Shown: positions 15,152-59,880, counted from the first letter of the stretch. The stretch is 64,000 nt of DNA from Dehalococcoidia bacterium (GCA_965197645.1 OZ240219.1:640001-704000), one strand, 5' to 3'. The notes: generated by a model not told the origin, from the letters alone. A program made the numbers and translations.

Positions 15152-16363
15152 TCAGCCGCATACGTCCAGCGCCGTCAGAGCCAATACCCGGCTGCACAGC
15201 ACCATCTCATCGATGCTGCTGTAGTCGTTACCATAGCTGCCGCCACCCGGCCCGTAGATAGGGGCGGGGATGCCGGCCAGCCAGAGGTGGGCATCGTCGT
15301 CGCCGTAGCGTGCGCTGAGTTCCGAGGCCGGCAGCCCAATGGTGTTCGGCTCTTGGCCTGTCACCTTCCGGTAGCTGGCCGTCAGCGTCTGGACTATCTC
15401 CTCTTCCACTGGCATGTCCATGGGCGGGTGGTCCATGATCCAGGTGTTGAACCTCCGCTCGATGGGGTGCACCAGCTCATACTCGAAGTTGGGGGCCTCT
15501 CTTCGAAGCCGGTCCAGCGTCGCCTCGAGGTCTCTTCGGATGGTCTCGGCCGTCATTCCCGGCACGGTGCTGACGGCGATGAAAGCCGTGCACAGATCGG
15601 CGTTACGGCTGACGGACCTCATGTCGTAGGTCTCACCTCTCCCGCCGATTATCGACCCCACCTTCAGCCAGGGCAGCCCATTGACGTCCCAGGGCTCGAA
15701 GGTAAGCGGGGTACCGTAGATGGCGTCTATCGCCTTCATCATCTGGGGAATTGCGTCGACTCCCGTCACGTCGTCGCCCTCGGGATGCCGCCCTTTGACG
15801 TGCAGGGAAAATTTGGACATGCCGCCATGCTTGGTGACGATGTTGTGGGCGCCATAGGGCTCGGTTACCACGGCCATGTCGGTCCTGTAGCCCGATTCCA
15901 TCAGGTGGACCGTGCCGAGGCCACCCTGCAGCTCCGCCAGGACGCACCCGACCACCAGATCGCCTTTGAGCTGCGTTCCCGACCGACGAAGGGCCTCGGC
16001 GGCGTGGACCATCGAGGCGACGCCGCTCTTCATGTTGCGAATTCCCGCCCCGTACAGCCTGTCTCCTTCTACCCGGGGCTCGAAGGGGTTGCCGGTCTGC
16101 CCCGAAGCCAGGGGATTGTTGTCCAGGTGGCCGTTGAACATCAGGCTCCGGCCTCCCCCAGATCCCTTCAGGACGGCGACGGTCTGGTACCAACCCGGCT
16201 CCACCTCCTGGAGCTCGACCTCGTAGCCTCGTGCCGAGAAGTAGCTCGCCAGCCAGCGGGCCAGCGGCGTCTCGTCCCCTATCATGCTGGGAATCCGTAT
16301 CAGGTCCTTGCCCAGTTCAACCAGCTCCTGCCGGTCGATGTGCCCCAGTACGTCTTCAGACAT
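15152..16363 (-). CDS. M20 (ArgE/DapE-like) metallo-hydrolase, non-canonical ligands (paralog 1)
   Basis: FNGHLDNNP, YGAGIRNMKSG, LAELQGG, VTEP, YGDDDAHL. Confidence 0.88.
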   Translation of the reverse strand: MSEDVLGHIDRQELVELGKDLIRIPSMIGDETPLARWLASYFSARGYEVELQEVEPGWYQTVAVLKGSGGGRSLMFNGHLDNNPLASGQTGNPFEPRVEGDRLYGAGIRNMKSGVASMVHAAEALRRSGTQLKGDLVVGCVLAELQGGLGTVHLMESGYRTDMAVVTEPYGAHNIVTKHGGMSKFSLHVKGRHPEGDDVTGVDAIPQMMKAIDAIYGTPLTFEPWDVNGLPWLKVGSIIGGRGETYDMRSVSRNADLCTAFIAVSTVPGMTAETIRRDLEATLDRLRREAPNFEYELVHPIERRFNTWIMDHPPMDMPVEEEIVQTLTASYRKVTGQEPNTIGLPASELSARYGDDDAHLWLAGIPAPIYGPGGGSYGNDYSSIDEMVLCSRVLALTALDVCG

Positions 16364-16492
16364 AATCTGCCGCTTTCTTCGAGGATGGAGGCATGATACT
16401 ACAACGGATTCCTCGCCTGGGTACAGGCATTGGCACACCGCGGTTCGAAGAGCACAAGGTGACGAGACCACCTTCCAAGAGGTTTGGCCGCG

Positions 16493-17242
16493 CTAGAAGG
16501 GGATCAGGGCCGTCCCCAGGGCGATATCGGACATCAGAGCGAAGCCGAAGGCGACGCTGAACATCCCTGCGACGCCCGCCACGGCGGAGTTAATCCTCTT
16601 GAAACCGGCTCCGAGGGCGAAGGGCACTCCCAGAACGAGGGTGATGACCCCCATGGACAGAATGGTGCCGACGCCGAACATGAGAATGTAGCCCAGGCCC
16701 ACCCAGAAGGAGGAGATCTTGGGCAGCAGGAGCAGCATTACGGCGGCGCTGCCGGCTAGGCCGTGGACGAGACCTATCACATAGGACTTGGTGCGGAAGA
16801 AGGGCTTGCCCGGACTGAAAAACCCGTGAGGCGACTCCACCTCGGGTGCGTCGGTTCGATCGTGGGTGGCGTGGATGTGAACGTGGGGACCGCTATCGTG
16901 GCTGTGTTTGTGCACGTGGAGACGTCCCCGGCGCAGATTCCAGAACACCTGGGCGCCGAGGAATACCAGCATAATAGCCACGCCGAACTCGAACAGCGGG
17001 GCGACGGCATCGTACCGGTCCAGTACCGACTCTTTGAACAGGAGGATGATCACGCCCAGCACCAGCAGGGGCGTCGAGTGGCCGAGACCCCATGACCCCC
17101 CGACCCATATGCTCTTCCAGGCGTTACGGTGCTCGCCGGCTATAGTAGAAACGGCGACGACGTGGTCGGCATCGGTGGCGTGCTTCAAGCCCAGTAGGAA
17201 CCCAAGCGCCAGCGCCGCCAGGGCACCCGACTCGATATCCAC
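16493..17242 (-). CDS. NiCoT/UreH-like nickel/cobalt transporter
   Basis: KHATDADH (HX4DH), WGLGH, His-rich loop HVHKHSHDSGPHVHIH, GLVHGLAGSAA. Confidence 0.85.
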   Translation of the reverse strand: MDIESGALAALALGFLLGLKHATDADHVVAVSTIAGEHRNAWKSIWVGGSWGLGHSTPLLVLGVIILLFKESVLDRYDAVAPLFEFGVAIMLVFLGAQVFWNLRRGRLHVHKHSHDSGPHVHIHATHDRTDAPEVESPHGFFSPGKPFFRTKSYVIGLVHGLAGSAAVMLLLLPKISSFWVGLGYILMFGVGTILSMGVITLVLGVPFALGAGFKRINSAVAGVAGMFSVAFGFALMSDIALGTALIPF

Positions 17243-17354
17243 GGCTCAGTCCTCCCTCGGTTTTGCTATAGTCAAAATGCTCCTGCAACAAGTTGCAGGA
17301 GCATTCTAGTGCAACAGACACTTCGAGTCAACTGGTCTTCAGGGACAGCTTACC

Positions 17355-18575
17355 TCAGATAGCCCCCTCTTCTCGCAGGGCGGCCACGTCCTCGACAGAG
17401 TACTCGAGGAGGCCGGTCAGTATCTCCTCGTTGTGCTGGCCCAGGAGGGGAGCGTGGTCGAACACCTCATCCGTTCCGGGCATCTTTATCGGGTTGCCAG
17501 CGGCTTTGTACCTGCCGCTGACCGGGTGGTCTATCTCCACCACCATGTTCCGATGCAATATCTGGGGGTTTGAAGTAGCTTCGGCGAAGTTGTTGACCTT
17601 GCTGGAGGGCACGTCGCCGGCCTCCAACTCGGGTATCCACTCGTCTACGGTCTTCGTCCGGAACGCCCTGGACAGGGCCTCCTCCAACTCTTCCTTGTGC
17701 TCGATCCTCGACATCGGGGTCTCGAACCGGGAATCGTTGGGCAGGTCTTCGAACCCATCCACGCGAGATATCACCCTGGCCAGGTTTTCGTAGAACCGCT
17801 GTATGGGACAGCTGATCTGAACGTGCCGGCCGTCCTTGGTCTCGAAGGCGCCGATGGGCACGTTGGTCTGGTGTCCCGATCCCAGCGGCTCCGGCAGATT
17901 CCCGGAGACCAGGAAAAGCTGGCCGATGTGGGCCTGCAACGCGATCTGAACGTCCAACAGACTGACCGATATCTCTCGGCCCACTCCCGTCTGCTCACGA
18001 GCATACAGGGCCGCCAGAATGCCCTGGACGGCGTACAGTCCTCCACCGGTGTCTCCCATGGGATAACCCATAAGAAACGGCGGCGTGTCCCTGGTGCCGG
18101 TGATGCTCATCACCCCGCCCATAGCCTGGATCATGCCATCGAAGGCGGGCCTGTCCTTCATGGGCCCGCTGGTCCCGAAACCAGATATGGCGCAGTAGAT
18201 GATGCGGGGATTGACCGCCTTCATCACCTCGTAGCCCAGGCTCAGCTTGTCCATCACCCCCGGCCGAAAGTTCTCGAAGACCACGTCGGATACCGTCACC
18301 AGCTCCTTGAATATCTTCTTGCCCTTCTCGTGCTTCAGGTCCAGGGTGACGCCCTTCTTGTTGCGGTTGATGCCCAGATAGTAGGCGCTCTCGCCCTCCA
18401 GGAAGTAGGGTGGAAACCGACGGCTGGAATCGCCAACTCCGGGCTGCTCGATTTTGATGATCTCGGCGCCCAGGTCGCCCATAACCCTAGCGCCGAAGGG
18501 CCCGGCGAGAGCCTGGGTCAGATCGAGTATTCGCACCCCTTTCAGGGGACGTTGGAGGTTGCTATCGTTTGTCAT
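17355..18575 (-). CDS. family III CoA-transferase (CaiB/BaiF)
   Basis: LAGPF..LGAEIIKIE, NRNKKG, ENFRPG, GFG, catalytic Asp in PMGDTGGG. Confidence 0.92.
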   Translation of the reverse strand: MTNDSNLQRPLKGVRILDLTQALAGPFGARVMGDLGAEIIKIEQPGVGDSSRRFPPYFLEGESAYYLGINRNKKGVTLDLKHEKGKKIFKELVTVSDVVFENFRPGVMDKLSLGYEVMKAVNPRIIYCAISGFGTSGPMKDRPAFDGMIQAMGGVMSITGTRDTPPFLMGYPMGDTGGGLYAVQGILAALYAREQTGVGREISVSLLDVQIALQAHIGQLFLVSGNLPEPLGSGHQTNVPIGAFETKDGRHVQISCPIQRFYENLARVISRVDGFEDLPNDSRFETPMSRIEHKEELEEALSRAFRTKTVDEWIPELEAGDVPSSKVNNFAEATSNPQILHRNMVVEIDHPVSGRYKAAGNPIKMPGTDEVFDHAPLLGQHNEEILTGLLEYSVEDVAALREEGAI

Positions 18576-19368: not shown

Positions 19369-19506
19369 TCAGGGTGCAGGTGCTGGGGAACGTAGCCAGA
19401 TTATAGATAGCGGGCAATTGGGGGTCAACCCGAACGGTTTTGCTCTATTCTTTACAGGTCGAATAAGGCCTGCTCGATGTGATCCCCGGCCGGTACGGTT
19501 CGAGTT

Positions 19507-29511: not shown

Positions 29512-29633
29512 CCCGGCTTCCTCCAAGTGGCATTATACTCTTTACCGGGACTCGACCTTCCGGTTGACACCCCAACTAGGCGGTGGGACAATTTAGGCCG
29601 CTTTCCAGGGCTGTAACCTCCATTCCAGACGCT

Positions 29634-30806
29634 ATGCAATCCGCCCTATCCGATATAAGGATCGTAGACCTGGCTACCGATATAGCCGGCTCCTACGCCT
29701 GCATGCTTCTCGGCGACATGGGCGCCGACGTGGTCAAAGTCGAGCTGGCCGGCTCCCCCAACTGGCGAGGCGACCTTCCCTTCCACCTGTGGAACAGGGG
29801 TAAGAAGAGCCTGGGCCTCGACCTGGAAAGGGAGGGCGCCCGTGAGGTCCTGGAAAAGCTGGTCCGCCAATCGGATGTGCTGGTGGAGAGCTTCCTACCC
29901 TCCCAGGCCAAAGCCGCAGTGCTGGACTATGAATCGGTCAGTCGCCTGAACCCCCGGCTGCTCTACTGCGCCATGCCTCCTTTCGGCGAGGAGGGCCCCC
30001 TGAGCGACAAGCCCGCCGACGATGGGGTCGTGGCCGCCTTCGCAGCGATAATGGGCGACCAGACCGGCCCGGACCAACCCCCGGCCTTCATCACCATACC
30101 CGCCTCCAGCTACAGCGCCTCCATCCTGGCCTGCTACGCCATCTGCTCGGCCCTGTACGTAAGGGAGGTGGAGGGAATAGGGCAGAAGATCGAGGTGCCG
30201 CTGCTGAACGGCGCCCTCACCGTGCAGGGCCACCACTTCATCCACGCACCGGACATGACCCGGGAGACGGAAACCCAAGGCGATCAGCAGGGCACCGTCC
30301 CCGCTTACCGGCTCTACGAGTGCAGCGATGGCAAATGGATGTTCATTGGCTGCGGCAACACGGCTTTCTGGACCCGGCTGTGCAATGTCCTGGGGTTGGA
30401 GAGGTACCTGTCCGAACCTCGATACGAGAACGCTCCCTGGGTCTTCGAGGAACAGGACAGGCTGGATATCATCGCACAGCTGACGCCGATCATCGCCCGA
30501 CACCCTCAGGAGTACTGGCTGGACCTGTTCGACAAAGAGGATATCCCCTGCGCTCCCGCCGACACTCGGCACGACTACGCCGCCGATCCCCAGGTGCTCC
30601 ACAACGGCATGATAGTGGACATGGATGATCCGATGCTGGGCAACACCCGGCAGATGGGCTTGCCCGTGGCCATGACCCTTACGCCGGGAGATACCAACAC
30701 GCCGGCATCAATGAACGGTGAGCACGCCGATGGGATACTGGAATCGCTGGGCTACGACGGCCCGGCCCGGGAGGAGCTGAAGAAGAGCGGGGCGCTGACA
30801 TGCTGA
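29634..30806 (+). CDS. family III CoA-transferase subunit lacking the catalytic Asp
   Basis: IAGSYA..MGADVVKVE, WNRGKKS; the Asp position reads PASSYSAS. Confidence 0.88.
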   Translation: MQSALSDIRIVDLATDIAGSYACMLLGDMGADVVKVELAGSPNWRGDLPFHLWNRGKKSLGLDLEREGAREVLEKLVRQSDVLVESFLPSQAKAAVLDYESVSRLNPRLLYCAMPPFGEEGPLSDKPADDGVVAAFAAIMGDQTGPDQPPAFITIPASSYSASILACYAICSALYVREVEGIGQKIEVPLLNGALTVQGHHFIHAPDMTRETETQGDQQGTVPAYRLYECSDGKWMFIGCGNTAFWTRLCNVLGLERYLSEPRYENAPWVFEEQDRLDIIAQLTPIIARHPQEYWLDLFDKEDIPCAPADTRHDYAADPQVLHNGMIVDMDDPMLGNTRQMGLPVAMTLTPGDTNTPASMNGEHADGILESLGYDGPAREELKKSGALTC

Positions 30807-31966
30807 CCCACGCTCTACAGAACGTCAAGGTCGTAGACCTTTCCAGCTACATAGCCGGGGCCTACTGCCCGACTCTGCTGGCCGACCTCGGCGCAGATGT
30901 CATCAAGTTCGAATCGCCCATGGGAGACCCCTTTCGGGCCAACGGCCCTCCATTCCACGTGTGGAACCGCGGCAAGAGGGGGCTGGTCGTTGACCTGCGC
31001 AAGGACGAGGGTAAGGAGGTCCTCTACCGGCTGGTCAAGGACGCCGACGTGGTGGTGGAGAACTACCGGCCCGGCGTGGCCGCCAAGCTGGGCGCCGACT
31101 ACGATACCCTGAAGAAGATCAACCCATCGCTGGTCTACTGCTCCATCTCCGGCTACGGCCAGACCGGGCCCTACAGCAAGAAGCCCGGCTTCGATCCGCT
31201 GCTCCAAGCCCGAAGCGGCGCCATGACCTATCAGGGCGGCCCCGACAATCCTCCCGTGTTCCTCGCCGTCGCCATCTCCGATTACGGCGGCGCCATGCTG
31301 GGAGCGTGGGCCGTGGCCATGGCCCTGTTCGCTCGAGCGCGGACTGGTCGGGGGCAGTGGGTGCAGACCTCCCTGGCAAACTCCGCCATGTCCATGCAGT
31401 CGGACAGGTTCATTCTTCCAAAAGGGGAGACCAACCACAACGATCCGGGCCACCCCCAGGGCCCCACACCCACCTATCGCGCCTACAAGACAGCTGATAG
31501 TTGGCTCTTCATAGGCGTCACTACCGACGACCAGTGGCACAAGCTCGCCAAGGCCCTGGGCAGGGATGACCTAGCCCGCGACGAGAGGTTCGGTTCCGGC
31601 GAAAAACGACAGGTCGCCGATGCGGAGCTGCATGCCATACTGGCAGAGATATTCGCTGCCAACGGCTCGGACCACTGGCTGAAGCTGCTGGAGGCCGAAG
31701 GTGTCCCCTGCTCCAGGGTGAACTACTTCGACAATGATCTGATGCATCACCCCCAGGTCCTGCAGAACGGTCTGCTCGCACAGCATCGTTCCAGGGACAT
31801 CGGTGAGATCGAGCAGATCGGCGTGCCCGTCAAGCTGAGCAAGACGCCGGGCATCGCCCAGCGGGCCGCCCCCGGCCACGGCGAGCACTCCGACGAGGTC
31901 CTGCTGGAAGCCGGCTACACCGCCGACGAGATCAGGTCTCTACGGGACGCCAAGGTGGTCTACTGA
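30800..31966 (+). CDS. family III CoA-transferase (CaiB/BaiF)
   Basis: IAGAYC..LGADVIK, ENYRPG, GYGQTGP, catalytic Asp in AISDYGG; overlaps the previous gene by 7 nt. Confidence 0.92.
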   Translation: MLTHALQNVKVVDLSSYIAGAYCPTLLADLGADVIKFESPMGDPFRANGPPFHVWNRGKRGLVVDLRKDEGKEVLYRLVKDADVVVENYRPGVAAKLGADYDTLKKINPSLVYCSISGYGQTGPYSKKPGFDPLLQARSGAMTYQGGPDNPPVFLAVAISDYGGAMLGAWAVAMALFARARTGRGQWVQTSLANSAMSMQSDRFILPKGETNHNDPGHPQGPTPTYRAYKTADSWLFIGVTTDDQWHKLAKALGRDDLARDERFGSGEKRQVADAELHAILAEIFAANGSDHWLKLLEAEGVPCSRVNYFDNDLMHHPQVLQNGLLAQHRSRDIGEIEQIGVPVKLSKTPGIAQRAAPGHGEHSDEVLLEAGYTADEIRSLRDAKVVY

Positions 31967-32082: not shown

Positions 32083-32892
32083 TCACTTGCTCAGCCAGTA
32101 CTCCGCAATGTCTATGCCCCGCATGAACTCCACGTTGGGGTGGGAGCGGGCGTACTTGATCAGCTTCTCCACTGCCAGCAACCGGCTGGGTCGACCGCTC
32201 ACCTGGGGGTGCAGGGTTACGGTCATGCACCGGCCATACTTGTAGATGCCGTCGAACTCCGCGGCATAGGTCTCGAACACACTGTCCGGGTCCTGCATGG
32301 CGGAGCGGACATCGGCGGCGGGCATGAAGGCGAAGTACCCGAAGTCGTCCAGCGCCCATTTGACGGGCACTTCCACCAGCTTCTTGCCGTCTATCTCGTG
32401 GATGTAGGGTGCATCGTCGTCCATCATGCTGGTGTCGTAGACGAAGCCATACTCGGTCAGCAGCCTTAGAGTGTTGGGGCTGGAATCGAACACCGGGGCG
32501 CGGTACCCCTTGGGCTTTTCACCGGTGATGTTCTCCAGCGCGGATATTCCCTTCTCCAGGTACCCGGTCTCGGTTTCCAGGTCCACCCCACCAAGAGGCT
32601 CGTGCATATAGCCGTGGTGCGCTACCTCGTGACCTCTCCGCACCAGATCCTCCACCATCTCCACGTGGGTTTCGGCGACGTAGCCGGGGACGTAGAAGCT
32701 GGCTTTGATATCGTATTCGTCCAGCAGGTTGAGAATGCGGGGGACGCCCCGTTTGGGCCCGTACTCTGCGAGGGTCATCACGCTGGGCCGGTCGGCAAAT
32801 TCGGGGTTTCGGCTCAGCCATGAGCTGACTCCGTCGATATCGAACCCCAGGCTTATGACGCACTGTGTGTCTCCGGGCCAGATTCCCGCCAT
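32083..32892 (-). CDS. polysaccharide deacetylase (CE4, PuuE/PgdA-like)
   Basis: GFDID, EYGP..GVPRIL, HHGYMHE, GYRAP, LDD, HPQ. Confidence 0.9.
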   Translation of the reverse strand: MAGIWPGDTQCVISLGFDIDGVSSWLSRNPEFADRPSVMTLAEYGPKRGVPRILNLLDEYDIKASFYVPGYVAETHVEMVEDLVRRGHEVAHHGYMHEPLGGVDLETETGYLEKGISALENITGEKPKGYRAPVFDSSPNTLRLLTEYGFVYDTSMMDDDAPYIHEIDGKKLVEVPVKWALDDFGYFAFMPAADVRSAMQDPDSVFETYAAEFDGIYKYGRCMTVTLHPQVSGRPSRLLAVEKLIKYARSHPNVEFMRGIDIAEYWLSK

Positions 32893-32893: not shown

Positions 32894-33721
32894 TTATCCC
32901 TCCCCGTCGGGGTGTTCCTTGAGCCAGTGTTCGGCGATGTCCACCGCCCGCATGAACGCGGCGTTGGGGTGTCGCTTGATGTGCTGTATCGTGCGCTCCA
33001 GGCTTGCCAGGCGGCTGGGGTGGCCGGTGATCTGCGGGTGCATGGTCAGCACGAAGCACCTGCCCTCTCTGTACAGGCCATCGAACTCCGAGGTCCACGT
33101 CCTGGCCACGCTCGCGGGACTGCACATGGGCCCCCGGATGCCGGCGGCGGGCACGAACCCGAAGTAGGGAAAGTCGTCAAGCAGCCAGTGGATGGGAAGC
33201 TCGACGATATCACCGTCCTTGGTGTGCCAGATGTAGGGAGCGTCGTCGTCCATCAGGCTGCTATCGTAGAGGAACCCGTGTTCGGCCAATAACGGCCCCG
33301 TGTGCGGCGTCACGTCCCACGAGGGCGATCTGTACCCCCTGGGTCTCTGCCCGCTCAGTCCTTCGAGGATATCGATACCCTTCTCCAGCACCTCCCGCTC
33401 CTCAGTGGGACTGAGGCGGGCGGGGGGCTCGTGCATGTAGCCGTGGTGAGCGATCTCGTGACCCCCGGCTGCCAGCTCCCTGACCATGTCCGGGTGGGTC
33501 TCGGCGACGTAGGCCGGGATGAAGAAGCTGGCCTTGATTTCGTAGCTATCGAGAAGCTGGAGTATCCTGGGGAGCCCCGTTTTGGGCCCGTACTCCCCCA
33601 TGGTCATCAGCCCGGGCCGGTTGGCGAAATCGGGGTCCCTGCCGATCCACGAGCTCACCCCATCGACATCGAAGCCCAGGTTGACGGCGCATTGGATGTC
33701 ACCGGGCCACAGTCCAGCCAT
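32894..33721 (-). CDS. polysaccharide deacetylase (CE4, PuuE/PgdA-like), tandem paralog
   Basis: GFDVD, HHGYMHE, GYRSPSW, YDSSLMDDD, MHPQ. Confidence 0.9.
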   Translation of the reverse strand: MAGLWPGDIQCAVNLGFDVDGVSSWIGRDPDFANRPGLMTMGEYGPKTGLPRILQLLDSYEIKASFFIPAYVAETHPDMVRELAAGGHEIAHHGYMHEPPARLSPTEEREVLEKGIDILEGLSGQRPRGYRSPSWDVTPHTGPLLAEHGFLYDSSLMDDDAPYIWHTKDGDIVELPIHWLLDDFPYFGFVPAAGIRGPMCSPASVARTWTSEFDGLYREGRCFVLTMHPQITGHPSRLASLERTIQHIKRHPNAAFMRAVDIAEHWLKEHPDGEG

Positions 33722-38398: not shown

Positions 38399-39643
38399 CT
38401 ACCTGGGCCGGTTGCACCAGTCCAACGCGGTGAGCGATAGGACCTGGGCCACCTGAAGTATGTGGCTCACGCTGACCCAGCCATCCACCTCGTCCGGGGC
38501 GTCTCCACCGCCTCTTGGGCCGTAGAGACAGCAGGGTATTCCCGCCTCCAGCAGGTGCGACGTGTCATTTCCAGCGTAGGACTGGGGTACCAGCGCCCCC
38601 ACCTGTTCGGGTTCGTGCCCGGTGAACTTTTTGTAGCTCCCCGCCAAAGTGCGAACGATGGGTTCGTCGGGGGACACCTCGAAGGGGTTCATGTACACCC
38701 GCTGGACCTTGTATTCGGCAGGGGGTGGGGTCTCTATCTCGTACCTGAAGTTGGGGTCCTCGGCGGCAAGACCATCGAGCACGGCCTTGATGTCGGCTAC
38801 GGCCATCTCGGCCGTCTGGCCGGGCACGGTGCGAATATCGGCGATGCAGGTGCAGAAGTCGGACGTGAAGTTGGGACCCCGCATATCGTGGTCCCGGCCC
38901 CGACCGGCGAGCATCACCCCTACGATGATCCGCGGCATATCGGGCAGCCCAGGATGGGGTGGGTAGTTGAACTTGACGTTCTTCACCGCCGGCACCACCT
39001 TCAGCATCATGTCCAAGGCGTCGATAGCTTTGTCAGCCTGGCTCATGTGCTTCGATAGTCCCAGCGTGTGAATGACGATCTCGACCCAGCCCACGTGGGT
39101 GGTCAGGATGTTGTCCTTTCCATAGGGCTCGGCGACTATGGCCGCATCGGCCGTGAAGCCCTGTTGGATGGCGTGAACCGTGCCAACTCCTCCCTGGAGC
39201 TCGCCCACGACGCACTCTACGATCAGGTCGCCCTTGAGTGGGGCCTTGGACCGGCGGATTGCTTCGGCGGCATGCACTATCGAGGTCACGCCGCCCTTCA
39301 TGTTGTTGCCGCCGCCTCCATACAGCCGATCGCCCTCATGGCTGGGGGTGAAGGGGTCCCGCTTCCATCCCATGGCCAGCGGATCGATATCGATGTGACC
39401 GTTGAGAATGAGGCTCTTGCCCCCACCGCTCCCCTTCAGCCTGGCGATGGTCTGAAACCGGCCTGGATCGACCTCCTGTAGATCTACCTCGTAACCACGG
39501 CGTCGGAAGTAGTTGGCCAGGTATCGGGCTACCTTGGTCTCCTCCGTCTTGAAGCTGGGCATAGATATCAGCTTGCTGCAGAACTTGACCAGCTCGTCCT
39601 CTTTGATCTGCCTCAACACCCTGTCTTTGACGACCTGCTCCAT
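38399..39643 (-). CDS. M20 (ArgE/DapE-like) metallo-hydrolase, non-canonical ligands (paralog 2)
   Basis: LNGHIDIDP, YGGGGNNMKGG, VGELQGG, AEP, YAGNDTSHL. Confidence 0.9.
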   Translation of the reverse strand: MEQVVKDRVLRQIKEDELVKFCSKLISMPSFKTEETKVARYLANYFRRRGYEVDLQEVDPGRFQTIARLKGSGGGKSLILNGHIDIDPLAMGWKRDPFTPSHEGDRLYGGGGNNMKGGVTSIVHAAEAIRRSKAPLKGDLIVECVVGELQGGVGTVHAIQQGFTADAAIVAEPYGKDNILTTHVGWVEIVIHTLGLSKHMSQADKAIDALDMMLKVVPAVKNVKFNYPPHPGLPDMPRIIVGVMLAGRGRDHDMRGPNFTSDFCTCIADIRTVPGQTAEMAVADIKAVLDGLAAEDPNFRYEIETPPPAEYKVQRVYMNPFEVSPDEPIVRTLAGSYKKFTGHEPEQVGALVPQSYAGNDTSHLLEAGIPCCLYGPRGGGDAPDEVDGWVSVSHILQVAQVLSLTALDWCNRPR

Positions 39644-39740: not shown

Positions 39741-42700
39741 TTACTCGTACCGCAGTGCTTCGGCGGGGGCGATGTTCGCCGCCTGGCGAGAGGGCAGGAA
39801 CGTGGTCAACAGGGAGAACAGGTATCCTCCGGCTGCCACGAGAAGTATGGTCCCCCAGGGGAAGACCAGCTGGATACCCGGCTCTTCGCTACGGATGTCG
39901 GCCACGATGTTGACCGAACTCACCAGTCCCAGGGCCAGTCCCAGACCTATGCCGAGCACGGCAATGAAGGAGGACTCCGCCAGAAACGTCAGCTGCACCA
40001 TCCGTCCGGAGAAGCCTATGGCCCGCATCACGCCGATCTGGTGACGGCGCTCCACCACCGCCCTGGCGCTGACGACACCCAGGGCGGCAATCCCAACCAC
40101 CAGGCCCAGGGACATAAAGGCGATGAGCAGATTGAAGAAGGACCGGTTGGCGGCCTGCAAACCCTCTATCGTCTCCTCTATATCGATCGTCTCCAGCCCG
40201 TGCTGGAAGAACGCGGCCTCCAACCTGTTGGCAGATCCATCGGTACCCGGGTCTACGTTGAAAAAGAACTGGGTAGCATCGATGTCCCGGTCCAGATGGG
40301 CTTGCAGGGTGTTGGATGAGGTGAAGATCCCGAAGGGCAGAGACCCCTGGGAGGCGAAGACGTCCAGAACGCCTATGATGGTCAGCTGTAGGGTGGTGTT
40401 GCTCTTCAGGTCCCGGACCTCTACCTCGATGGGCTCCATGGTCTCATTCTCAATGTAAAGGCCTTCCACGCCGTTCAGGGTGAAATCCTCAAAAGATATG
40501 TCGAAGGCGAAGTTGTTCCTGGAGGGGACCAAGAGGGCATTCACCACCGCCAGGCCCTGGTTGTCCCGGAGGTCCCTCCAGACTTTTCCACTATCGAAGC
40601 CGGAGCCCGTTGCGTATTCAGCGGTGGCTAGCTTTATAGAGAAGTCGTTGGAGGCCACGAAGTCATCGTCGACTCCGGTGATTAGGGTATCCTCGAACTC
40701 CCCTTTGACGGCCTGGTCCAACCTGGCGTCGGCCTGGGGGATCGTCCTGAAGGTGCCTACCGAGGGCTCCCCATTGACCCTGGACACGAAAGCCAAGTCG
40801 GGATTTTCTCCGACGGCCTGGCCCAGATCGGGCACGGGGTTCACGTCCGCCACGGACAAGGCCATTACATCGTACCCGCCTCCAAGCCTGGATTGATCGT
40901 CCAGCAGACGATTGAATCCTTCGATAGTGGTGGACATCACCGTGACGGAAAAGATAACCACGGCGAAAATCGCTACCGAAAGCCCCGTTCGAAAGCTGAA
41001 CCTGAGGGGATAGGCAACGGAGGACTTGATGATGGGGGCCAAGCGTCTGAACCGGCCCAGGGTGGCCGACGCTGTCCCCAGCACAAGTGACGAGTTGCTG
41101 ATAGTGGCTAGGACGGCCCCGGTAACCAACATCGCCGCGGAGACAAAGAAGATGGAAAAATCCTGGTTCCAGTCCTCTCTGATCTTGTCTATCACTCCGG
41201 GAGGCAAGAGCCAGTAGGCCACCAGGAAAAGCCCGGTGCCCGTTAGGACCCAACGTTGGGCGACTCCTAGCCATCTAAGGACCATGGCAACGCCAATGGG
41301 AACCAGTGATACTCCCAGACCGAAGGCGGTCGCCTGTGCGGAGCTGAAGCCCACGATCAGGACCAGGACTCCCACCACTGTCAGGATAACTCCCCAGATC
41401 AGGGCCTTCTTGCCCGCCCGGTGCATTTGAGGTTCGGGGATGTCCCGGATGGCTCTGACGATGTTTAGGCGGCTTATGCGCCTGGAGGCAAAGGCTACCG
41501 TCGCCAGGGTGATGACGCTCCCTACGAAAAACGAGACCAGGACGCTGGTGATCTCTACGTGGGCAGAAAGGGCGAAATCGTCGGTCTGGTCTTGCTCGAA
41601 CGCTCCTGCGGTGACTATCACCAGAAGGAAGCCCAACCCGATGCCAACGACTACGCCGACGATGGCGGAACCCAGACCATAAATGGCCCCTTCGGCCATG
41701 AACATGCGGATCAGGTGGCGGCGCTGCATTCCCACTGCCCTGGCCATGCCCAGCTCCGCCTTGCGCTCGGCGGCAAGCATGGAGAAGATGAGGAATATTA
41801 GCAGCAACCCCACACCGATGGAAAAGAGCCCGAAGGTGGTGAAGAAGGAAACGAAGAGGGTGCCCAGCTCGTTGGCGAAGTCTATGAGCTCCCTCTTCAG
41901 GCCGAAGACCTCCAGCCCGGCGTCTTTGATTGCGGGAAGATCGCCGATGCGCTCCACAACGGCGGAGGTGAGGTCCACGCCGCTGAACTCATCGCCCCGA
42001 TTGGAGATCAGGACGGAGGTGAGCTGGCCCTCCAGACCCAGCAGAGCTTGAGCCCGCTCCAGGGAGACCAGGACTACAACGTTCGTCGAGTCTCTCTTGA
42101 AGTACCATCCGTCCACCACAGCCTTGACTGACATCTGGGTCAGCTCGTCGGGACCGAGGGCTACTCCCAGCACGTCTCCCGGTTGGGCGCCGATCTCCCG
42201 AGCGCCATCCCTATCGATGTAGACCTCGTCGGGACCGAGTGAAGCCAGGTCTATAGTGCGGCCATCGGTGTCCACCAGGGTTTCGAACGCTGCGGCCCTG
42301 GCCGGGTCCAGGCCCGACAAGAGGGCGTTTACAGTGAACTGCTGGCTGCGTATGTTAACGGCGCCCGTCTGTTCAACCAGGGCAGGAAGGACGCCGTCGA
42401 TATCCGGGTCGGAGTCCAGGACGGGCGCTATCTCGTCAAAGATCGACTCGGAGAACACCTCCGGCAGCGCTCTGCCTTCCCACACCTCGGAGTCCTCGTC
42501 TATCTGGATGATCTCGTCGAGGGAGAGCAGGTTGTCGGTAACGCTCTTCTTGATGCTGAAAGTAATGGAGTCGCCGGTGGTAAAGGCGCTGGTGATGATA
42601 GCCGTCGCCAGCATGAGACCGACGACAATCAGGACGCCCCGGGCCGGGCGTCTGGTAACGTTGCGCATAGCCATCCGGACCAGTACCGGGTCTCTCAGGG

Positions 42701-42791
42701 CGATGAAGACCAGGGCTACGGCGAATAAGGTGAATAGGACGCCCAGCACAACCAGAATGGAGCTGATAGGTGCCCCGAAAAGCTCATCCAT
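39741..42791 (-). CDS. ABC transporter permease, double FtsX/MacB type
   Basis: Two FtsX-like halves (AERKAELGMARAVG; ERRHQIGVMRAIG), C-terminal PAEALRYE. Confidence 0.9.
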   Translation of the reverse strand: MDELFGAPISSILVVLGVLFTLFAVALVFIALRDPVLVRMAMRNVTRRPARGVLIVVGLMLATAIITSAFTTGDSITFSIKKSVTDNLLSLDEIIQIDEDSEVWEGRALPEVFSESIFDEIAPVLDSDPDIDGVLPALVEQTGAVNIRSQQFTVNALLSGLDPARAAAFETLVDTDGRTIDLASLGPDEVYIDRDGAREIGAQPGDVLGVALGPDELTQMSVKAVVDGWYFKRDSTNVVVLVSLERAQALLGLEGQLTSVLISNRGDEFSGVDLTSAVVERIGDLPAIKDAGLEVFGLKRELIDFANELGTLFVSFFTTFGLFSIGVGLLLIFLIFSMLAAERKAELGMARAVGMQRRHLIRMFMAEGAIYGLGSAIVGVVVGIGLGFLLVIVTAGAFEQDQTDDFALSAHVEITSVLVSFFVGSVITLATVAFASRRISRLNIVRAIRDIPEPQMHRAGKKALIWGVILTVVGVLVLIVGFSSAQATAFGLGVSLVPIGVAMVLRWLGVAQRWVLTGTGLFLVAYWLLPPGVIDKIREDWNQDFSIFFVSAAMLVTGAVLATISNSSLVLGTASATLGRFRRLAPIIKSSVAYPLRFSFRTGLSVAIFAVVIFSVTVMSTTIEGFNRLLDDQSRLGGGYDVMALSVADVNPVPDLGQAVGENPDLAFVSRVNGEPSVGTFRTIPQADARLDQAVKGEFEDTLITGVDDDFVASNDFSIKLATAEYATGSGFDSGKVWRDLRDNQGLAVVNALLVPSRNNFAFDISFEDFTLNGVEGLYIENETMEPIEVEVRDLKSNTTLQLTIIGVLDVFASQGSLPFGIFTSSNTLQAHLDRDIDATQFFFNVDPGTDGSANRLEAAFFQHGLETIDIEETIEGLQAANRSFFNLLIAFMSLGLVVGIAALGVVSARAVVERRHQIGVMRAIGFSGRMVQLTFLAESSFIAVLGIGLGLALGLVSSVNIVADIRSEEPGIQLVFPWGTILLVAAGGYLFSLLTTFLPSRQAANIAPAEALRYE

Positions 42792-42808: not shown

Positions 42809-43534
42809 CTAGTCGCCATTTTGCAACACTTCCTCTACGATCTGTCCATCGGCCATGCGTATGAGTCGGTCCGTGGTGCGGCCGACGTTCAGGTCGTGGG
42901 TAACGATGACACAGGTGAGGCCCTGTTCACGGTTGAGCCGTCTGATAACAGCAATGATCTCCTTGGAGTTCTCGCTATCCAGGTTTCCCGTCGGCTCATC
43001 GGCCCAGACGATTTCGGGCTGGTTGACCAGCGATCTGGCTACGGTCACCCTCTGCTGTTCTCCTCCCGAGAGCTCCGACGGGTCGTGGCTCCCACGATGG
43101 GCAAGGTTCACCAGTTCCAGGGCGGCCCTCGCCCTCTCCCGGGCCTCGCTGGCCTTGGTGCCGGAAACCAGAAGCGGCAGCTCCACGTTCTCTACCGCCG
43201 TGAGGACGGGCAGCAGGTTGAAAGACTGAAAGATGTACCCCATCCGGGTAGCTCGGTAACGGGTTTTCTGGTTGTCGGACAGGGTGGATATATCGGTACC
43301 GGCTATCTTGATGAACCCGGAATCTATGTCATCCAACCCGGAAAGAGAGTTGAGCAGGGTGGTCTTGCCACAGCCGCTGGGGCCCATGATAGCCACCATC
43401 TCGCCCCGGGCCACTGTCAGATCAACGCCTCTCAGAGCGTGGACCTTCACTCGCCCGGTATCGTAGGTCTTATGGACCCCCTGGGCATCAATGATCGGCT
43501 CGTCCGCTGGACTGGACATCTCCATCTCCTGCAA
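42809..43534 (-). CDS. ABC transporter ATP-binding protein (LolD/MacB-like)
   Basis: [28 protein letters not shown]. Confidence 0.95.
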
Positions 43535-50435: not shown

Positions 50436-50437
50436 GA

Positions 50438-54947: not shown

Positions 54948-55043
54948 CAAGTGCGGTACCTTTGGTAAGTTGGAGAACGACCTGTGCCGATTATAGTCCC
55001 GGCCGCGATTTCTGACCACATCTCGGCTTGCGGCGACGCCCAC

Positions 55044-55280: not shown

Positions 55281-55317
55281 AGCTGCATAGGTGGCATGGT
55301 CGTAATGTGAACGGGCC

Positions 55318-55929
55318 CTAGCCGCCTACCTCCACACGGATGTCCGTCGGGGCGCCCGAGTTGGTGTCGTTCTGGTCCTGGGGGCAGGCGGAGACGCAGA
55401 CGTAGGAGTCCATGTCCGCCCGGATTATCACGTAGTCGCCGGGCTGGGTCTGAGGCGCCGCGATTCCCATCGAACCGTCGGGGTTGACCGGGAAGTTGGT
55501 GAACAGGTTGACCGGCTGGGGTATCTCGACCCCTGCCACTCCGATCGCCTCCATCTCCTTCTGCAGGTTCTCCTCGCAGCTGGCGTGCCATCCCTCCACC
55601 CCCAGCTCCCGATACCGGCTCGGGTTGCAGGCGGCGAACAGCAGGTCGTGGATCCCCGGACTGTGGTCCTCCACCAGCGTCATGATGGGCCGGCGCTCCT
55701 GGGTATAGAACCCGTCGCCCTCTATGGGGAAGAGCCGGTTGATGGACGGCCTCGTGTGCTCTGCGCTCAGGTACTCCCTGATGTTCTCGACGTTGAAGGC
55801 GAAGAAATCGACTGCCTGGCCACCCTCCGAGTCGATCACCTTGATCAGCTCCCCTTCGCTCACCCTGAACGCCCTGCCCGTTCGAGCGGGAACGTCGTGG
55901 TCCAGCCGTATCTTCGATAGCTCCGTCAT
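55318..55929 (-). CDS. DUF1989 (urea carboxylase-associated) family protein
   Basis: GGQAVDF, LSAEHT, HDLLFAAC, HASCEENL, PVNLFTN, SACPQD. Confidence 0.88.
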   Translation of the reverse strand: MTELSKIRLDHDVPARTGRAFRVSEGELIKVIDSEGGQAVDFFAFNVENIREYLSAEHTRPSINRLFPIEGDGFYTQERRPIMTLVEDHSPGIHDLLFAACNPSRYRELGVEGWHASCEENLQKEMEAIGVAGVEIPQPVNLFTNFPVNPDGSMGIAAPQTQPGDYVIIRADMDSYVCVSACPQDQNDTNSGAPTDIRVEVGG

Positions 55930-55968
55930 GGTTGCTCCTCCACTATCTCTCATGGGGCTCCAGGGACT

Positions 55969-57222
55969 CTAGCCGGCCACTTCACACACGTCCAGCGCGG
56001 TATGGGCCAGCACCTTGGCGCACTGCACCATCTCGCTGATGTTGACGTAGTTGTCCGGCTCCTCTTCCCCGGCGTATATGCCGCCCGGCCCGTAGAGCAG
56101 GCACGGTATGCCCGCCTTCCACAGATGGCACGTGTCGTCGCCGGAGTAGGCCAGCGGTAGGACGGTGCCCACCTGCTTCGGGGCCGATCCCACCACCTGC
56201 GAATAGTTGCTCACTACCCGCTGCACGAAGGGGTGATCCGTCGGTATGTCGAAGGGCTCCATCACCAGCCAACGAGAGCTGCGGAAGCTTCGAGGCACCG
56301 GTATCTCCACCTCGTACTTCAGGTCCGGGTCCTCCCGGGTCAGCGGCTCCAGCGTGCGATGGATGTCCGCCACAATGGAGTCCACCGTCTGACCGTGGAC
56401 GAAATGGACGTCGATTATCGCCGTGCAAAAATCGGACACCAGGTACGGGTCGACGAGATCGTACTCCGGCCCCCGGCCGCCTATGACCGCGCCCACCTGA
56501 AGTATGGGCATCTTGGGCAGGTCCGGACGGGGCGTATGCGTCAGTTCGATGCCCCGCAGGGCCTTAGTCACCTTCTCCATCTTCTCTATGGCGTCGATGG
56601 CCCCGGTCAGGTTGCTCAAGTGCTTCGAGTAGCCGTAGGTGTGGACAGCCATGTGGACGATGCCGCAGTGGACGGTGGCGATGCTGTCCCCGCCGAAGGG
56701 CTCGGTGACGATGGCGTAGTCGGTTCTCAAGCCCTGCTCCAGCATGTGGTGAGTGCCCTCGCCACCCGCCAGCTCCCCGACCACGCAGGCCAGGACCAGG
56801 TCGCCCTTGAGCTGCACCTTGGACGTGCGTATCGCCTCGGCGGCGGCGATCTGGGTGGCTACGCCGCCCTTCATGTTGAAGGTGCCTGCGCCGTAGAAAC
56901 GGTCCCCTTCTATGGACGGCGTCCACGGGTCTCGCTTCCAACCCCGGCTGAGCTCGTCGATATCGATGTGGCCGTTGAGCATCAGGCTCTCGCCCCCGCC
57001 GGCGCCCTTGAGGGTGGCGATGGTCTGGTACCGGCCGGGCTCCACCTCCTGCAGCTCCACCTGGTACCCGCGACGCTTGAGCAGGTTGCCGATGTACCGG
57101 GCAACGGCCGTCTCTTCGTTCTTGAAGCTGGGGATCCTTACGATCCGGCCCAACAGGTCCAGCATGGCCCCCTTGTCCCGCTCCACCCTGCCGACAACCT
57201 TATCGGCTATGCCTTGGTCCAT
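55969..57222 (-). CDS. M20 (ArgE/DapE-like) metallo-hydrolase, non-canonical ligands (paralog 3)
   Basis: LNGHIDIDE, YGAGTFNMKGG, VGELAGG, TEP, YSGDDTCHL. Confidence 0.9.
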   Translation of the reverse strand: MDQGIADKVVGRVERDKGAMLDLLGRIVRIPSFKNEETAVARYIGNLLKRRGYQVELQEVEPGRYQTIATLKGAGGGESLMLNGHIDIDELSRGWKRDPWTPSIEGDRFYGAGTFNMKGGVATQIAAAEAIRTSKVQLKGDLVLACVVGELAGGEGTHHMLEQGLRTDYAIVTEPFGGDSIATVHCGIVHMAVHTYGYSKHLSNLTGAIDAIEKMEKVTKALRGIELTHTPRPDLPKMPILQVGAVIGGRGPEYDLVDPYLVSDFCTAIIDVHFVHGQTVDSIVADIHRTLEPLTREDPDLKYEVEIPVPRSFRSSRWLVMEPFDIPTDHPFVQRVVSNYSQVVGSAPKQVGTVLPLAYSGDDTCHLWKAGIPCLLYGPGGIYAGEEEPDNYVNISEMVQCAKVLAHTALDVCEVAG

Positions 57223-57315
57223 TTTCGTCTCCTATCCGCCCGTTTGTTCCGAGGAAGTCCGTCACAGTACCGGGACTAAGAACCCGGTCGGGGTCTAAGC
57301 TCAATGCCGCCTCGT

Positions 57316-58557
57316 CTACTCTTGATTGCACGCCTCGTAAGCCGCAAGAGCGATAACCTTGGCGCACGTGTCCATCTGATCGATGCTGACGTAGTTGTCG
57401 GGCTCATCGCCGTCATCCCAACCCCCCGCCGGCCCGTAGAGCACGCAGGGTATCCCCGCCTTCCACAGGTGGGCCGTGTCGTTGCCCGAGTAGGAATCGG
57501 GCGCTTTGACCCCTATGGTAGACGGCGGGCTCCCGGTAACCTCTTCTACCTTGCGAGCCACCAGCTGGGGAAGGTACCCCTCGGTGGGCATGTTCATAGG
57601 TTCCATGGAGACCCGGGCCACGCCGTAGTTGGCGGGCGGCGGGCACTCTATCTCGTAGCGGAAGTCCCGGTCCTCGGCCTTGATGGCGTCCAGCGCCTTG
57701 CGGACGTCGGCTATAACCATCTCCTCCGTCTGTCCCGGCACGGCCCGGGCATCTACCAGCGCCGTGCAGAAATCGCTGACGAAGTTGGTGCCGTTCATCA
57801 CGTGGTCCCGTCCCAGCCCCCCGATGATTCCCCCCACCATGATGCGCGGCAGGGTCGGCAGGTCCGGGAAGGGCGGATGGCTCAGCTCCAGGCTGTTTAT
57901 CGCTGCGACCACCCTGGACATCTTACCTATGGCGTCGATGCCCTCCTCCTTCTGGCTCACGTGGCGGGAGTCTCCGAAGACGTTGATCGCCATCTGGATC
58001 CACCCTGCGTGAACGGTGAGGATCGATTCAGGGCCGTAGGGCTCGGGCACGATGGCCATGTCGGGCCGGGGGCCCCTCTCCAGCGCGGTGACCGTTCCGA
58101 TGCCGCCCTGCAGCTCGCCCGCCACGCAGGCGATGGTCAGATCACCCTTGAGCTCCAGCTTCGACTTTCGCAACGCTTCGGCGGCCCCTATCATCGAGGC
58201 GATGCCGCCCTTCATGTTGTAGGAACCGGCCCCGTACACCCTGTCCCCCTCGACGCTGGGGTGCCACGGGTCCCGGGTCCAGCCCATGGCCAGCGGATCG
58301 ATGTCGATGTGGCCGTTGAGCATCACCCGCTTTCCTGCGCCGGAGCCTTTCAGGGTAGCGATGGTCTGGAACCGGCCCGGGTCGACCTCCTGCAGCTCCA
58401 CCTCGTAGCCCCTGCGCCGGAAGAAACCGGCGAGGAAGCGTGCTACCGCCGTCTCCTCGGTTTTGAAGCTGGGTATCTTGATCAGCTTCTGCGCCAGATC
58501 CACCAGGAAGTCCCGTTTGATATGTCTGGTTATTCTATTTGCGGTATCGTCGGCCAT
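57316..58557 (-). CDS. M20 (ArgE/DapE-like) metallo-hydrolase, non-canonical ligands (paralog 4)
   Basis: LNGHIDIDP, YGAGSYNMKGG, AGELQGG, PEP, YSGNDTAHL. Confidence 0.9.
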   Translation of the reverse strand: MADDTANRITRHIKRDFLVDLAQKLIKIPSFKTEETAVARFLAGFFRRRGYEVELQEVDPGRFQTIATLKGSGAGKRVMLNGHIDIDPLAMGWTRDPWHPSVEGDRVYGAGSYNMKGGIASMIGAAEALRKSKLELKGDLTIACVAGELQGGIGTVTALERGPRPDMAIVPEPYGPESILTVHAGWIQMAINVFGDSRHVSQKEEGIDAIGKMSRVVAAINSLELSHPPFPDLPTLPRIMVGGIIGGLGRDHVMNGTNFVSDFCTALVDARAVPGQTEEMVIADVRKALDAIKAEDRDFRYEIECPPPANYGVARVSMEPMNMPTEGYLPQLVARKVEEVTGSPPSTIGVKAPDSYSGNDTAHLWKAGIPCVLYGPAGGWDDGDEPDNYVSIDQMDTCAKVIALAAYEACNQE

Positions 58558-58632
58558 CGATTGGTTCCTTCGCTCCCATTATGGAACTGTACGATCTCGG
58601 GCACGGTGTTTTCTCCCACTCAGACAGGCGGC

Positions 58633-59880
58633 TCACTTCGGCTGGTTGCACACGTCCAGTGCCGTCAGGGCCATCACCTTGGCGCAGTGCTCCATCTCGC
58701 TGATCGATACGTAGGTGTCCGGCTCCTCCCCCGGACCTCCCCGCCCGCCGCCGGGGCCGTGGAGCACGCAGGGGATGCCCGCCTTCCACAGGTGACAGGT
58801 ATCGTTTCCGGCGTAGGACCTGGGCACCAGCGTCCCGATGGTCTTGGGGTCCCGACCCTCCAGCTCCCGGAAGCTGTTCACCACCGATTGGACTATGTAC
58901 TCGTCCTTGGGGATGTCCACCGGCTCCATAACGTGGCGCATGTTGTTGAACTTGGCCGGGATGGGGATCTCGATCTCGTACTTGAGCTCCGGGTCCCCCT
59001 TCTTCAGATCGTCGAGGGTGTGGCGTACGTCCGCCTCCACCGATTTCGAGGTCTGACCGGGCAGGATTCTCACGTCCCACAGGCTGGTGCAGAAATCGCT
59101 CACGAAGTTGGGGCCTTTCAGGTCGTGGTCCCGGCCCCGTCCGCCTATGACGTTGCCGCACAGTATCCTCGGCAGGCCGGGCAGGTCCTCTCTGGGAGTG
59201 TAGGTCATCTTCAGGTTGCTAACCGCGTCGATGACGGGAAACATCTTCTCGATGGCGTCTACGCTGTGCTCTCGCCGGCTGATGTGCTGGGATCTGCCGA
59301 TGGTGTTGATGGCCATCCCCACCACGCCGGCATGGGTGGTCATCACCGTCTCCGCGCCGAAGGGCTCGGCGACGACGGCCATGTCCGCTCTTACCCCGCT
59401 CTCCAGGGCGTGGACCGTGCCCACCCCTCCCTGCAGCTCTCCCACCACACAGGCGATAACGATGTCACCTTTGATCTGGGTCTTCGACTTTCGAACGGCC
59501 TCTGCGGCGATGATCATGGAGGTGACGCCGCCCTTCATGTTGAAGGCGCCTCCGCCGTACAGCCGATCGCCCACGACGTCCGGCGTCCACGGGTCCCGCT
59601 TCCACCCTATCGACAGCGGATCGATGTCGATGTGCCCGTTGAACATCAGGCTCTTGCCGCCCCCGGCGCCCTTCAGCGTGGCGATGGTCTGGAACCGGCC
59701 GGGGTCCACCTCTTGGAGATCGACCTCGTAGCCACGCTGCCGGAAGTACCTGGCCAGGAATCGAGCGACCCGGGTCTCCTCCGTCTTGAAGCTGGGAATA
59801 CGAAGTATGCGGGATCCCAGCGATATCAGGGCCTTCCGCGTGATCTGCCGCAGCACCCGATCCTTGGCGGCCTGGTCCAT
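58633..59880 (-). CDS. M20 (ArgE/DapE-like) metallo-hydrolase, non-canonical ligands (paralog 5)
   Basis: FNGHIDIDP, YGGGAFNMKGG, VGELQGG, AEP, YAGNDTCHL. Confidence 0.9.
   Translation of the reverse strand: MDQAAKDRVLRQITRKALISLGSRILRIPSFKTEETRVARFLARYFRQRGYEVDLQEVDPGRFQTIATLKGAGGGKSLMFNGHIDIDPLSIGWKRDPWTPDVVGDRLYGGGAFNMKGGVTSMIIAAEAVRKSKTQIKGDIVIACVVGELQGGVGTVHALESGVRADMAVVAEPFGAETVMTTHAGVVGMAINTIGRSQHISRREHSVDAIEKMFPVIDAVSNLKMTYTPREDLPGLPRILCGNVIGGRGRDHDLKGPNFVSDFCTSLWDVRILPGQTSKSVEADVRHTLDDLKKGDPELKYEIEIPIPAKFNNMRHVMEPVDIPKDEYIVQSVVNSFRELEGRDPKTIGTLVPRSYAGNDTCHLWKAGIPCVLHGPGGGRGGPGEEPDTYVSISEMEHCAKVMALTALDVCNQPK

Follow-up and report, generated by a model that had tools for sequence, protein, structure and literature searches.

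Enzymes of the M20 family are generally presented as co-catalytic two-metal hydrolases, and the question raised by the present locus is what becomes of such a centre, and which chemistry might still be carried out by it, once the residues that serve the second metal have been exchanged. The locus is a stretch of 64,000 nucleotides, here called the window, from a Dehalococcoidia bacterium (GCA_965197645.1, OZ240219.1); it is chromosomal (C1:640001-704000 of a single-contig 3.21-Mb genome), has a G+C content of 61-63% and contains M20 genes whose nearest public relatives stand under the record titles Dehalococcoidia, SAR202 or Chloroflexota. An earlier note on this DNA had pointed to five M20 paralogs with a consistently remodelled, apparently mononuclear metal site. 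Judged from alignments, clade-wide counts and structure models, it appears fairly probable that the products of the five genes are cytoplasmic, homodimeric M20 metallohydrolases of a deep branch, called N-type in the following, in which only the metal-1 site is left of the co-catalytic two-metal centre.

The five reading frames are indeed all open on the minus strand where they had been placed, and encode intact, ArgE/DapE-like M20 proteins with a pairwise identity of 45.5-58.4% (P0001 to P0005; Table 1). Three of them (P0005, P0004 and P0003, in this order) form a tandem trio with intergenic gaps of 75 and 93 bases. The start of P0001 is probably the internal ATG rather than the GTG of the longest frame, because orthologue matches begin at query residues 27-42. 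All five proteins exceed the Pfam cutoff for PF01546 (Peptidase_M20; 66.9-83.9 bits vs 24.6). The dimerisation domain PF07687 (cutoff 21) is above cutoff in P0004 (42.9) and P0005 (35.6), just below it in P0002 (20.0) and P0003 (20.3), and is not listed for P0001. Among NCBIfam models the best is TIGR01910, the ArgE/DapE family deacylase, which with 156.3-192.4 bits stays under its cutoff of 217.6; the DapE and ArgE equivalogs are all far below their cutoffs among the best 25 of the 31-42 families per protein. The AlphaFold2 model of P0005 (pLDDT 97.4, pTM 0.94) retrieves M20 structures with Foldseek at probability 1.00 and displays the two-domain fold with inserted lid/dimerisation domain. 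The top match is 5K8M_C (E 3.7e-30), and the TMq values are 0.77-0.81 for 5K8M/5K8P/5K8O, 0.79 for 3PFO and 0.72 for 7UOI.

P0005 serves as reference for all residue and column numbers below. The motifs on which the earlier note had built recur in all five proteins of the five-way alignment, namely G-H-[IL]-D, N-M-K, (G/A)-E-L (with Ala in P0001), E-P and Y-x(0-1)-G-[ND]-D-[TD]-x-H-L, and His is missing from the canonical C-terminal ligand column in 5/5. From the M20 five-ligand set of His, bridging Asp, Glu, Glu and His, the paralogs keep only His and one Glu; the general-base Glu (E148) is kept in 5/5 and the lid His is retained as well. In DapE, Zn1 is held by the bridging Asp, Glu164 and His68, and Zn2 shares this Asp and is further bound by Glu136 and the C-terminal His; lid His194, R258 and T325 are part of the surroundings of the active site (PMC4012986). 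A comparison with solved enzymes was made with Enterococcus faecium DapE (7UOI), Escherichia coli ArgE (7RSF) and Haemophilus influenzae DapE (3IC1), and the ligand equivalences are supported by all three. With HMMER, 7UOI and P0005 pair as GatDMK/GafNMK, GEEvG/GELqG, GEPt/aEPf and GkeaH/GrsqH. The same ligand picture emerges from the alignments of 7RSF and of RPA2325 (3PFO), which put the canonical C-terminal His, within one residue in either direction, on the acidic stretch of [DE]-E-P-D-x-Y. For H. influenzae DapE, positions were counted along the canonical-profile alignment and bridged to P0005 via the 129-row alignment described below: D100 corresponds to N114, E134/E135 to E148/L149, H194 to H199, R258 to R271, D327 to D360, F330 to H363 and H349 to E385. 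Bridging Asp, second Glu of the EE pair and C-terminal His are consequently lost together while the HxD His, the EP Glu and the general base are kept, a coupling that had been proposed from the five sequences and is borne out by these alignments and by the following clade-wide counts.

Of 8000 candidates scored in a word-indexed protein search, 1956 matched at E ≤ 1e-10. In the best 120, which are 58-79% identical to P0005, together with the five paralogs, N-[MC]-K is found in 124/124, [GAS]-E-L in 123/124 and [ND]-D-[TDS]-x-H-[LM] in 109/124. When 1.84 billion representatives of clusters at 50% identity were searched exhaustively with a profile, 18117 matched at E ≤ 1e-3, 1401 of them at E ≤ 1e-30, and the best 150 were taken; 120 of these (370-470 residues) were aligned in 129 rows together with nine M20 genes of the own genome, the five paralogs and four others, the remaining 30 being left out as fragments or fusions. 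A row was classed as N-type if Asn occupies the bridging column and the Glu of the base column adjoins a residue other than Glu, and rows with Asp plus E-E were classed as canonical, which resulted in 68 N-type rows (60 among the 120 representatives and eight copies of the own genome), 40 canonical rows and 21 other variants. Asn114 and Glu148 are invariant in N-type rows by this definition and provide no evidence, while all other columns lie outside it. Among those, the C-terminal His (column 385) is present in 0/68 N-type vs 39/40 canonical rows, His83 in 68/68 and 40/40, Glu172 in 66/68 and 39/40, and lid His199 in 50/68 and 39/40; Asp85 is kept in 67/68 N-type rows. The His of D-T-x-H does accompany the remodelling, as had been suggested, with His363 in 50/68 N-type vs 5/40 canonical rows. 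Column 385 itself holds a mixture in the N-type rows (S 10, D 9, gap 7, N 7, P 7, G 6, and others). Equally, all 85 M20 open reading frames in 74 public loci and the window are N-type, and 81 of the 85 carry His363; at column 385, 38 of these close members are acidic, 18 each carry Gly and Thr, 10 have a gap and one has Gln.

Other remodelled versions of the centre lie in the same part of the M20 tree. Among the 21 other variants, six clusters (P0187, P0220, P0235, P0263, P0267 and P0273) keep the bridging Asp, read G-H-K for D-E-E and have no C-terminal His, three further clusters (P0176, P0177 and P0210) have His at the bridging position, and 11 N-type rows, one of the own-genome copies (L008) among them, read G-E-C with Cys after the base.

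In a quick, unrooted maximum-likelihood tree of the 129 rows (LG+G4, SH-aLRT), 39 of the 40 canonical rows fall into one starred clade (99*), and N-type and other rows fill the remainder. Judged from this tree and the alignments, the remodelling is inherited and does not represent five independent events; as it is shared by descent among the five paralogs, their number is not independent evidence, and the weight falls instead on conservation of the pattern throughout a deep clade. With a root on the side of the canonical rows, the remodelling would be a single old event, followed by later variants.

That the family is expanded, as had been claimed, is evident from the own genome, in which 11 M20 matches comprise eight N-type and three canonical genes. 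The three N-type genes outside the window read E-N-M-K, G-E-T and D-T-S-H (L006), N-M-K and G-E-L without His363 (L007), and N-M-K and G-E-C without His363 (L008), and the three canonical genes have D-[MC]-K, E-E and the C-terminal His. At E ≤ 1e-80, 2-10 copies are carried by 11/11 further genomes of this family, compared to 1/19 genomes from other families of the class; the subclade is therefore lineage-restricted, whereas N-type proteins overall are distributed more widely. By record title, the 74 public loci belong to Dehalococcoidia, SAR202 or Chloroflexota (64), Thermomicrobiales (5) and Rokubacteria (2), and the remaining three to a Bacillota metagenome-assembled genome, an unclassified metagenome-assembled genome and Nocardioides agariphilus KCTC 19276. 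In this last, cultured actinobacterium (L081), the open reading frame 2076-3338 (+) displays all motifs (H, D, N, K, G-E-L, E, lid H and D-D-T-x-H).

A tree including the tandem genes of sister genera resolves the relationships of the individual copies. P0002 groups with one member of the trio of the sister genus g4 and a gene of genome G002 in a starred orthogroup (100*), P0004 with another member of this trio and a G002 gene adjoining CinA (99*), and P0005 with the middle member (97*); orthologue protein identity is 55-79%, a divergence at which synonymous sites would be saturated for a dN/dS estimate. P0001 groups with L007 in a separate subclade, and the nearest gene to P0003 is L006, a join flagged as two long branches meeting. 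Three starred orthogroups that extend across genera imply that the duplications predate the genera and that the copies have been kept, and this retention supports the view of the earlier note that the altered site looks selected rather than decayed.

On the other hand, the remodelling has a precedent, and an already characterised M20 group with the same substitutions had been named in the earlier note as speaking against its proposal. 5-Nitroanthranilate aminohydrolase (5NAA-A or NaaA) of Bradyrhizobium sp. JS329, a solved and characterised enzyme (PDB 5K8M, 5K8N, 5K8O and 5K8P), has the same M20 two-domain fold and the same three changes, with bridging Asp replaced by Asn (N-C-K vs N-M-K), D-E-E replaced by G-E-I (vs G-E-L) and no C-terminal His, while the HxD His and the E-[PA] Glu are retained. 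The chains of 5K8M to 5K8P align end to end with the paralogs through NSHLD, vvN-C-K, c-G-E-I, vAEat and RDT-n-P. The entry titles describe an apo form, a 5NAA-bound form, a Mn2+/5NSA-bound form and a Zn2+/tetrahedral intermediate-bound form of R289A, with a single Mn2+ or Zn2+ in the metal-bound entries. Substrate is bound by 5NAA-A through an enzyme-coordinated M2+, Mn or Zn (PMC9814641). Two profiles, an N-type one from 69 sequences and a canonical one from 38, were run against PDB chains: 5K8P scored 222.7 bits (rank 1) with the N-type profile and 187.2 bits (rank 7) with the canonical one, 3PFO 213.3 and 221, DapE 7UOI 200.9 and 310.6, and ArgE 7RSF 169.2 and 245.6 bits, respectively.

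5NAA-A differs from the paralogs in having Arg at the lid-His column and Pro at the His363 column, where the paralogs have His at both, and in an insertion of approximately 14 residues after G-E that they do not have. Its Arg289, presumably a substrate-binding residue according to the R289A entry title, is not conserved in the paralogs and aligns with Asn in P0005. The metal of 5NAA-A is reported to be labile and to be loaded when substrate is present (Kalyoncu et al. 2016, Nat Chem Biol), and the enzyme is reportedly an octamer, in contrast to the lid-mediated dimer predicted for P0005. A representative close to 5NAA-A was not found among the 150 nearest clusters, where P0129, of the G-E-I type, reached only 1.8e-24, and a literature search for other single-metal M20 enzymes, with subscription journals mostly outside its coverage, returned nothing relevant.

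The canonical ArgE/DapE deacylases (3IC1/5VO3, 7UOI, 7RSF and 3PFO) share with the paralogs the fold, the domain order, the HxD His, the base Glu, the E-P Glu and the lid His, have Arg at the DapE R258 column as do three of the five paralogs, and have the [GN]-D-T or GGTD loop in common, N-D-T being found also in 3PFO; they differ by the bridging Asp, the second Glu and the C-terminal His, which in the paralogs are replaced by Asn, replaced by Leu and lost, respectively. That an M20 scaffold can hold one metal is indicated by the entry titles of mono-zinc DapE (3ISZ and 4O23), and mono-zinc forms are said to keep activity. Mono-zinc DapE, however, keeps all five ligands and can take up a second metal, whereas ligands for a second site are lacking in the sequences of the paralogs. 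The single-metal M20 type would accordingly have been seen first in 5NAA-A, and the present branch would constitute a large, unnamed, lineage-expanded variant with a co-varying His and a retained lid His. In substance, the interpretation of the earlier note holds with respect to coupled loss, expansion and maintenance, while its novelty is diminished by this precedent.

The homodimer of P0005 is predicted with an ipSAE of 0.75 (median of three runs) vs 0.00 for the best control, contacts that agree to at least 94% and a partner pLDDT of at least 92. The mark applied is reached by 20/30 solved homodimers and 1/23 single chains, a calibration that holds only roughly here since zinc was included and a custom alignment was supplied, and, as M20 dimers have already been solved, the pass may reflect likeness to them. 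In the predicted interface, the lid domain and residues 198-203, which include His199, face residues 353, 356 and 383 of the partner. By such an arrangement DapE His194 reaches the site of the neighbouring subunit (PMC4012986). His363 is located in the model two residues into helix 361-366, which follows the GGTD-equivalent loop.

From these elements a mechanism can be proposed in which one divalent metal (Zn, Mn or Co) would be held by His83 and Glu172, with Asn114 in place of the bridging Asp contributing at most a neutral carbonyl-oxygen contact or positioning a water molecule. Glu148 would act as general base and deprotonate the metal-bound water, and a substrate carbonyl or carboxylate would fill the coordination sphere as in 5NAA-A. 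Lid His199 of the partner subunit might close over the site in trans, as DapE His194 does, and the clade-specific His363 could be a third protein ligand or contact the substrate or the leaving group. The residue at the DapE R258 column varies across the five paralogs (R, R, R, H, S), as do the two residues before N-M-K (IR, GN, TF, SY, AF), which suggests substrate diversification; most likely the paralogs hydrolyse different small amides or N-acyl compounds.

An extended version of this proposal, in which recruitment of His363 as third ligand would have turned the relic of the metal-1 site into a His2-Glu (plus Asn) mononuclear centre, this centre would define a large M20 branch, as yet unnamed and of distinct chemistry, and the paralog series would be an expansion of substrate range, is unlikely. 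If true, this chemistry might be, for example, C-N cleavage on aromatic or poorly activated amines or amides from marine or subsurface organic matter, and the paralog series, with at least three orthogroups and two further lineages in the own genome, would be comparable to the catabolic paralog families of SAR202-like Dehalococcoidia.

Several points weigh against a reduction to the metal-1 site. That the centre is mononuclear is argued from the missing ligands and from one precedent, 5NAA-A, the identity of which to the paralogs is only 22-23%; with the N-type profile this precedent leads the canonical 3PFO by a narrow margin, and the TM scores are similar. His363 is missing from 18/68 N-type rows, from L007 and L008 of the own genome and from 5NAA-A, and can thus not be a universal ligand of the clade. 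Gene neighbourhoods, considered as a guide to the substrate, are heterogeneous, with no consistent partner beyond family-level synteny, and give no pointer to it. Furthermore, where the canonical C-terminal His would stand, four of the five paralogs have an acidic residue (D384, E387, D384 and E385; P0001 is deleted there), which makes a rebuilt second site possible for those four.

Such a site would still be dinuclear, with His363 and the Asp or Glu at column 385, together with Asn114, replacing DapE Glu135 and His349 as metal-2 site. Besides the acid, the enrichment of His363 in N-type rows and the location of loops 353-356 and 383, both at the site mouth in the dimer model, would agree with this arrangement. 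An acid at a metal-2 position had been named in the earlier note as speaking against its own proposal, and it is present in 4/5 paralogs; it is, however, not conserved, being kept in 38/85 close members while His363 stays in 81/85, and in P0001 the entire loop is deleted. As, in addition, the column of the second Glu holds Leu or another non-ligand residue and, by general chemistry, an amide side chain is unable to bridge two cations as a carboxylate does, a rebuilt dinuclear centre is regarded as rather improbable.

Reduction to a single metal can equally be combined with a reaction other than amide hydrolysis, namely the conversion of an aromatic amino to a hydroxyl group by metal-dependent nucleophilic aromatic substitution on aminobenzoate-like compounds, as in 5NAA-A. 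No solved enzyme comes nearer than 5NAA-A, with its identical ligand changes, either by N-type profile or by fold, and Dehalococcoidia/SAR202-like genomes are rich in catabolic paralog families (PMC5395668, PMC6946804). The low identity nevertheless limits the analogy, the position of Arg289 is occupied by Asn or other residues in the paralogs, the insertion of 5NAA-A and its lack of lid His and His363 set it apart, and lid His together with Arg at the R258 column (3/5) are features of N-acyl-amino-acid hydrolases, so that this chemistry is considered distinctly improbable for the present branch. Catalytically dead or metal-free M20 descendants with a ligand-binding or regulatory role, for which the loss of three of five canonical metal ligands and the failure of all listed NCBIfam models to reach their cutoffs might be quoted, are very improbable, given that His83, Glu172, Asp85 and lid His are kept outside the class definition at the frequencies reported above (Glu148, being definitional, is no test), that 5NAA-A with the same losses has been solved with bound substrate, product and tetrahedral intermediate, and that the orthogroups are retained across genera.

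Around the trio, synteny with DUF1989, CinA, inositol-monophosphatase-like and PI3/4-kinase-like genes is conserved within the family. In the window, the trio is followed on its own strand, after 15 bases, by a DUF1989 or urea-amidolyase-associated-like gene, which is taken as context only; its best NCBIfam matches, a trimethylamine-N-oxide demethylase domain (1.2e-36) and UAAP2 (2.2e-31), are all below cutoff. Such a gene is located approximately 3-6 kb from the trio in four of five g4 regions (L086-L090), together with CinA and an inositol-monophosphatase-like gene, and occurs also in 7/74 public loci, where the commonest neighbour is a metallo-beta-lactamase-fold gene (21/74).

Directly upstream of P0001 and on the same strand, a membrane protein of 249 amino acids is encoded with a weak match to NicO (PF03824, E 1.2e-6, 28.6 vs 27.7 bits), which might point to metal supply but could equally be coincidental. 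Upstream of P0002, equally on the same strand and with a gap of 97 bases, a duplicated FtsX-type permease of 1016 amino acids is accompanied by an ABC ATPase. The window also contains another catabolic paralog family, three family III CoA-transferases in 15 kb with oxalate, succinate-glutarate and formyl-CoA transferases as best NCBIfam models, all below cutoffs, as well as tandem polysaccharide-deacetylase (PF01522) paralogs one base apart. Open reading frames with a D-glutamate cyclase domain and a GLUCM-like C-terminal domain overlap by approximately 470 bases in different frames if the first starts are used; probably these are neighbouring genes, the second of which starts further downstream, the alternative being a frameshift in a fused gene.

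Table 1. Features of the window, with positions counted from its first nucleotide; residues of each M20 protein are in the numbering of its own open reading frame (ORF)
Feature	Coordinates	Strand	Key residues and remarks
P0001, M20 N-type	15152..16471	-	Longest ORF from GTG 16471, probable start ATG 16363 (residue 37); H115, D117, N146, E180-L181, E204, H229 (lid), D392, H395; S301 at DapE R258 column; loop carrying canonical C-terminal His deleted
P0002, M20 N-type	38399..39643	-	H83, D85, N114, E148-L149, E172, H199, R271, Y356, D360, H363; D384 at canonical His column
P0003, M20 N-type, third of tandem trio	55969..57222	-	H85, N116, E150-L151, E174, H201, H366; H273 at DapE R258 column; E387 at canonical C-terminal His column
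P0004, M20 N-type, middle of tandem trio	57316..58557	-	H83, N114, E148-L149, E172, H199, R271, H363, D384
P0005, M20 N-type, first of tandem trio	58633..59880	-	H83, D85, N114, K116, G147-E148-L149, E172, H199, R271, Y356, N359-D360-T361, H363, E385
DUF1989 / urea-amidolyase-associated-like gene	55318..55953	-	
Membrane protein with weak NicO match	16493..17242	-	
FtsX-type permease, duplicated	39741..42791	-	
ABC ATPase	42809..43534	-	
Family III CoA-transferase paralog	17355..18575	-	
Family III CoA-transferase paralog	29583..30806	+	
Family III CoA-transferase paralog	30800..31966	+	
Polysaccharide-deacetylase paralog	32083..32892	-	
Polysaccharide-deacetylase paralog	32894..33721	-	
D-glutamate cyclase domain ORF	7704..8498	+	
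GLUCM-like C-terminal domain ORF	8024..9352	+	

Coupled loss of the second metal site has been documented so far only for one xenobiotic-degrading enzyme, while the N-type branch is present in multiple copies in Dehalococcoidia/SAR202-like genomes and occurs also in records of Thermomicrobiales, Rokubacteria and a cultured Nocardioides. An expansion of M20 genes is not mentioned in the main texts of the SAR202 genome papers that were searched, and among the NCBIfam models listed there is no dedicated one that is reached by the paralogs. The record names acetylornithine deacetylase or ArgE/DapE deacylase are unsafe for the entire N-type branch. With the carrier Nocardioides agariphilus a tractable source for biochemistry is at hand, and the branch as a whole would offer a natural series on the reduction of a two-metal centre to one metal and on the chemistry that results.

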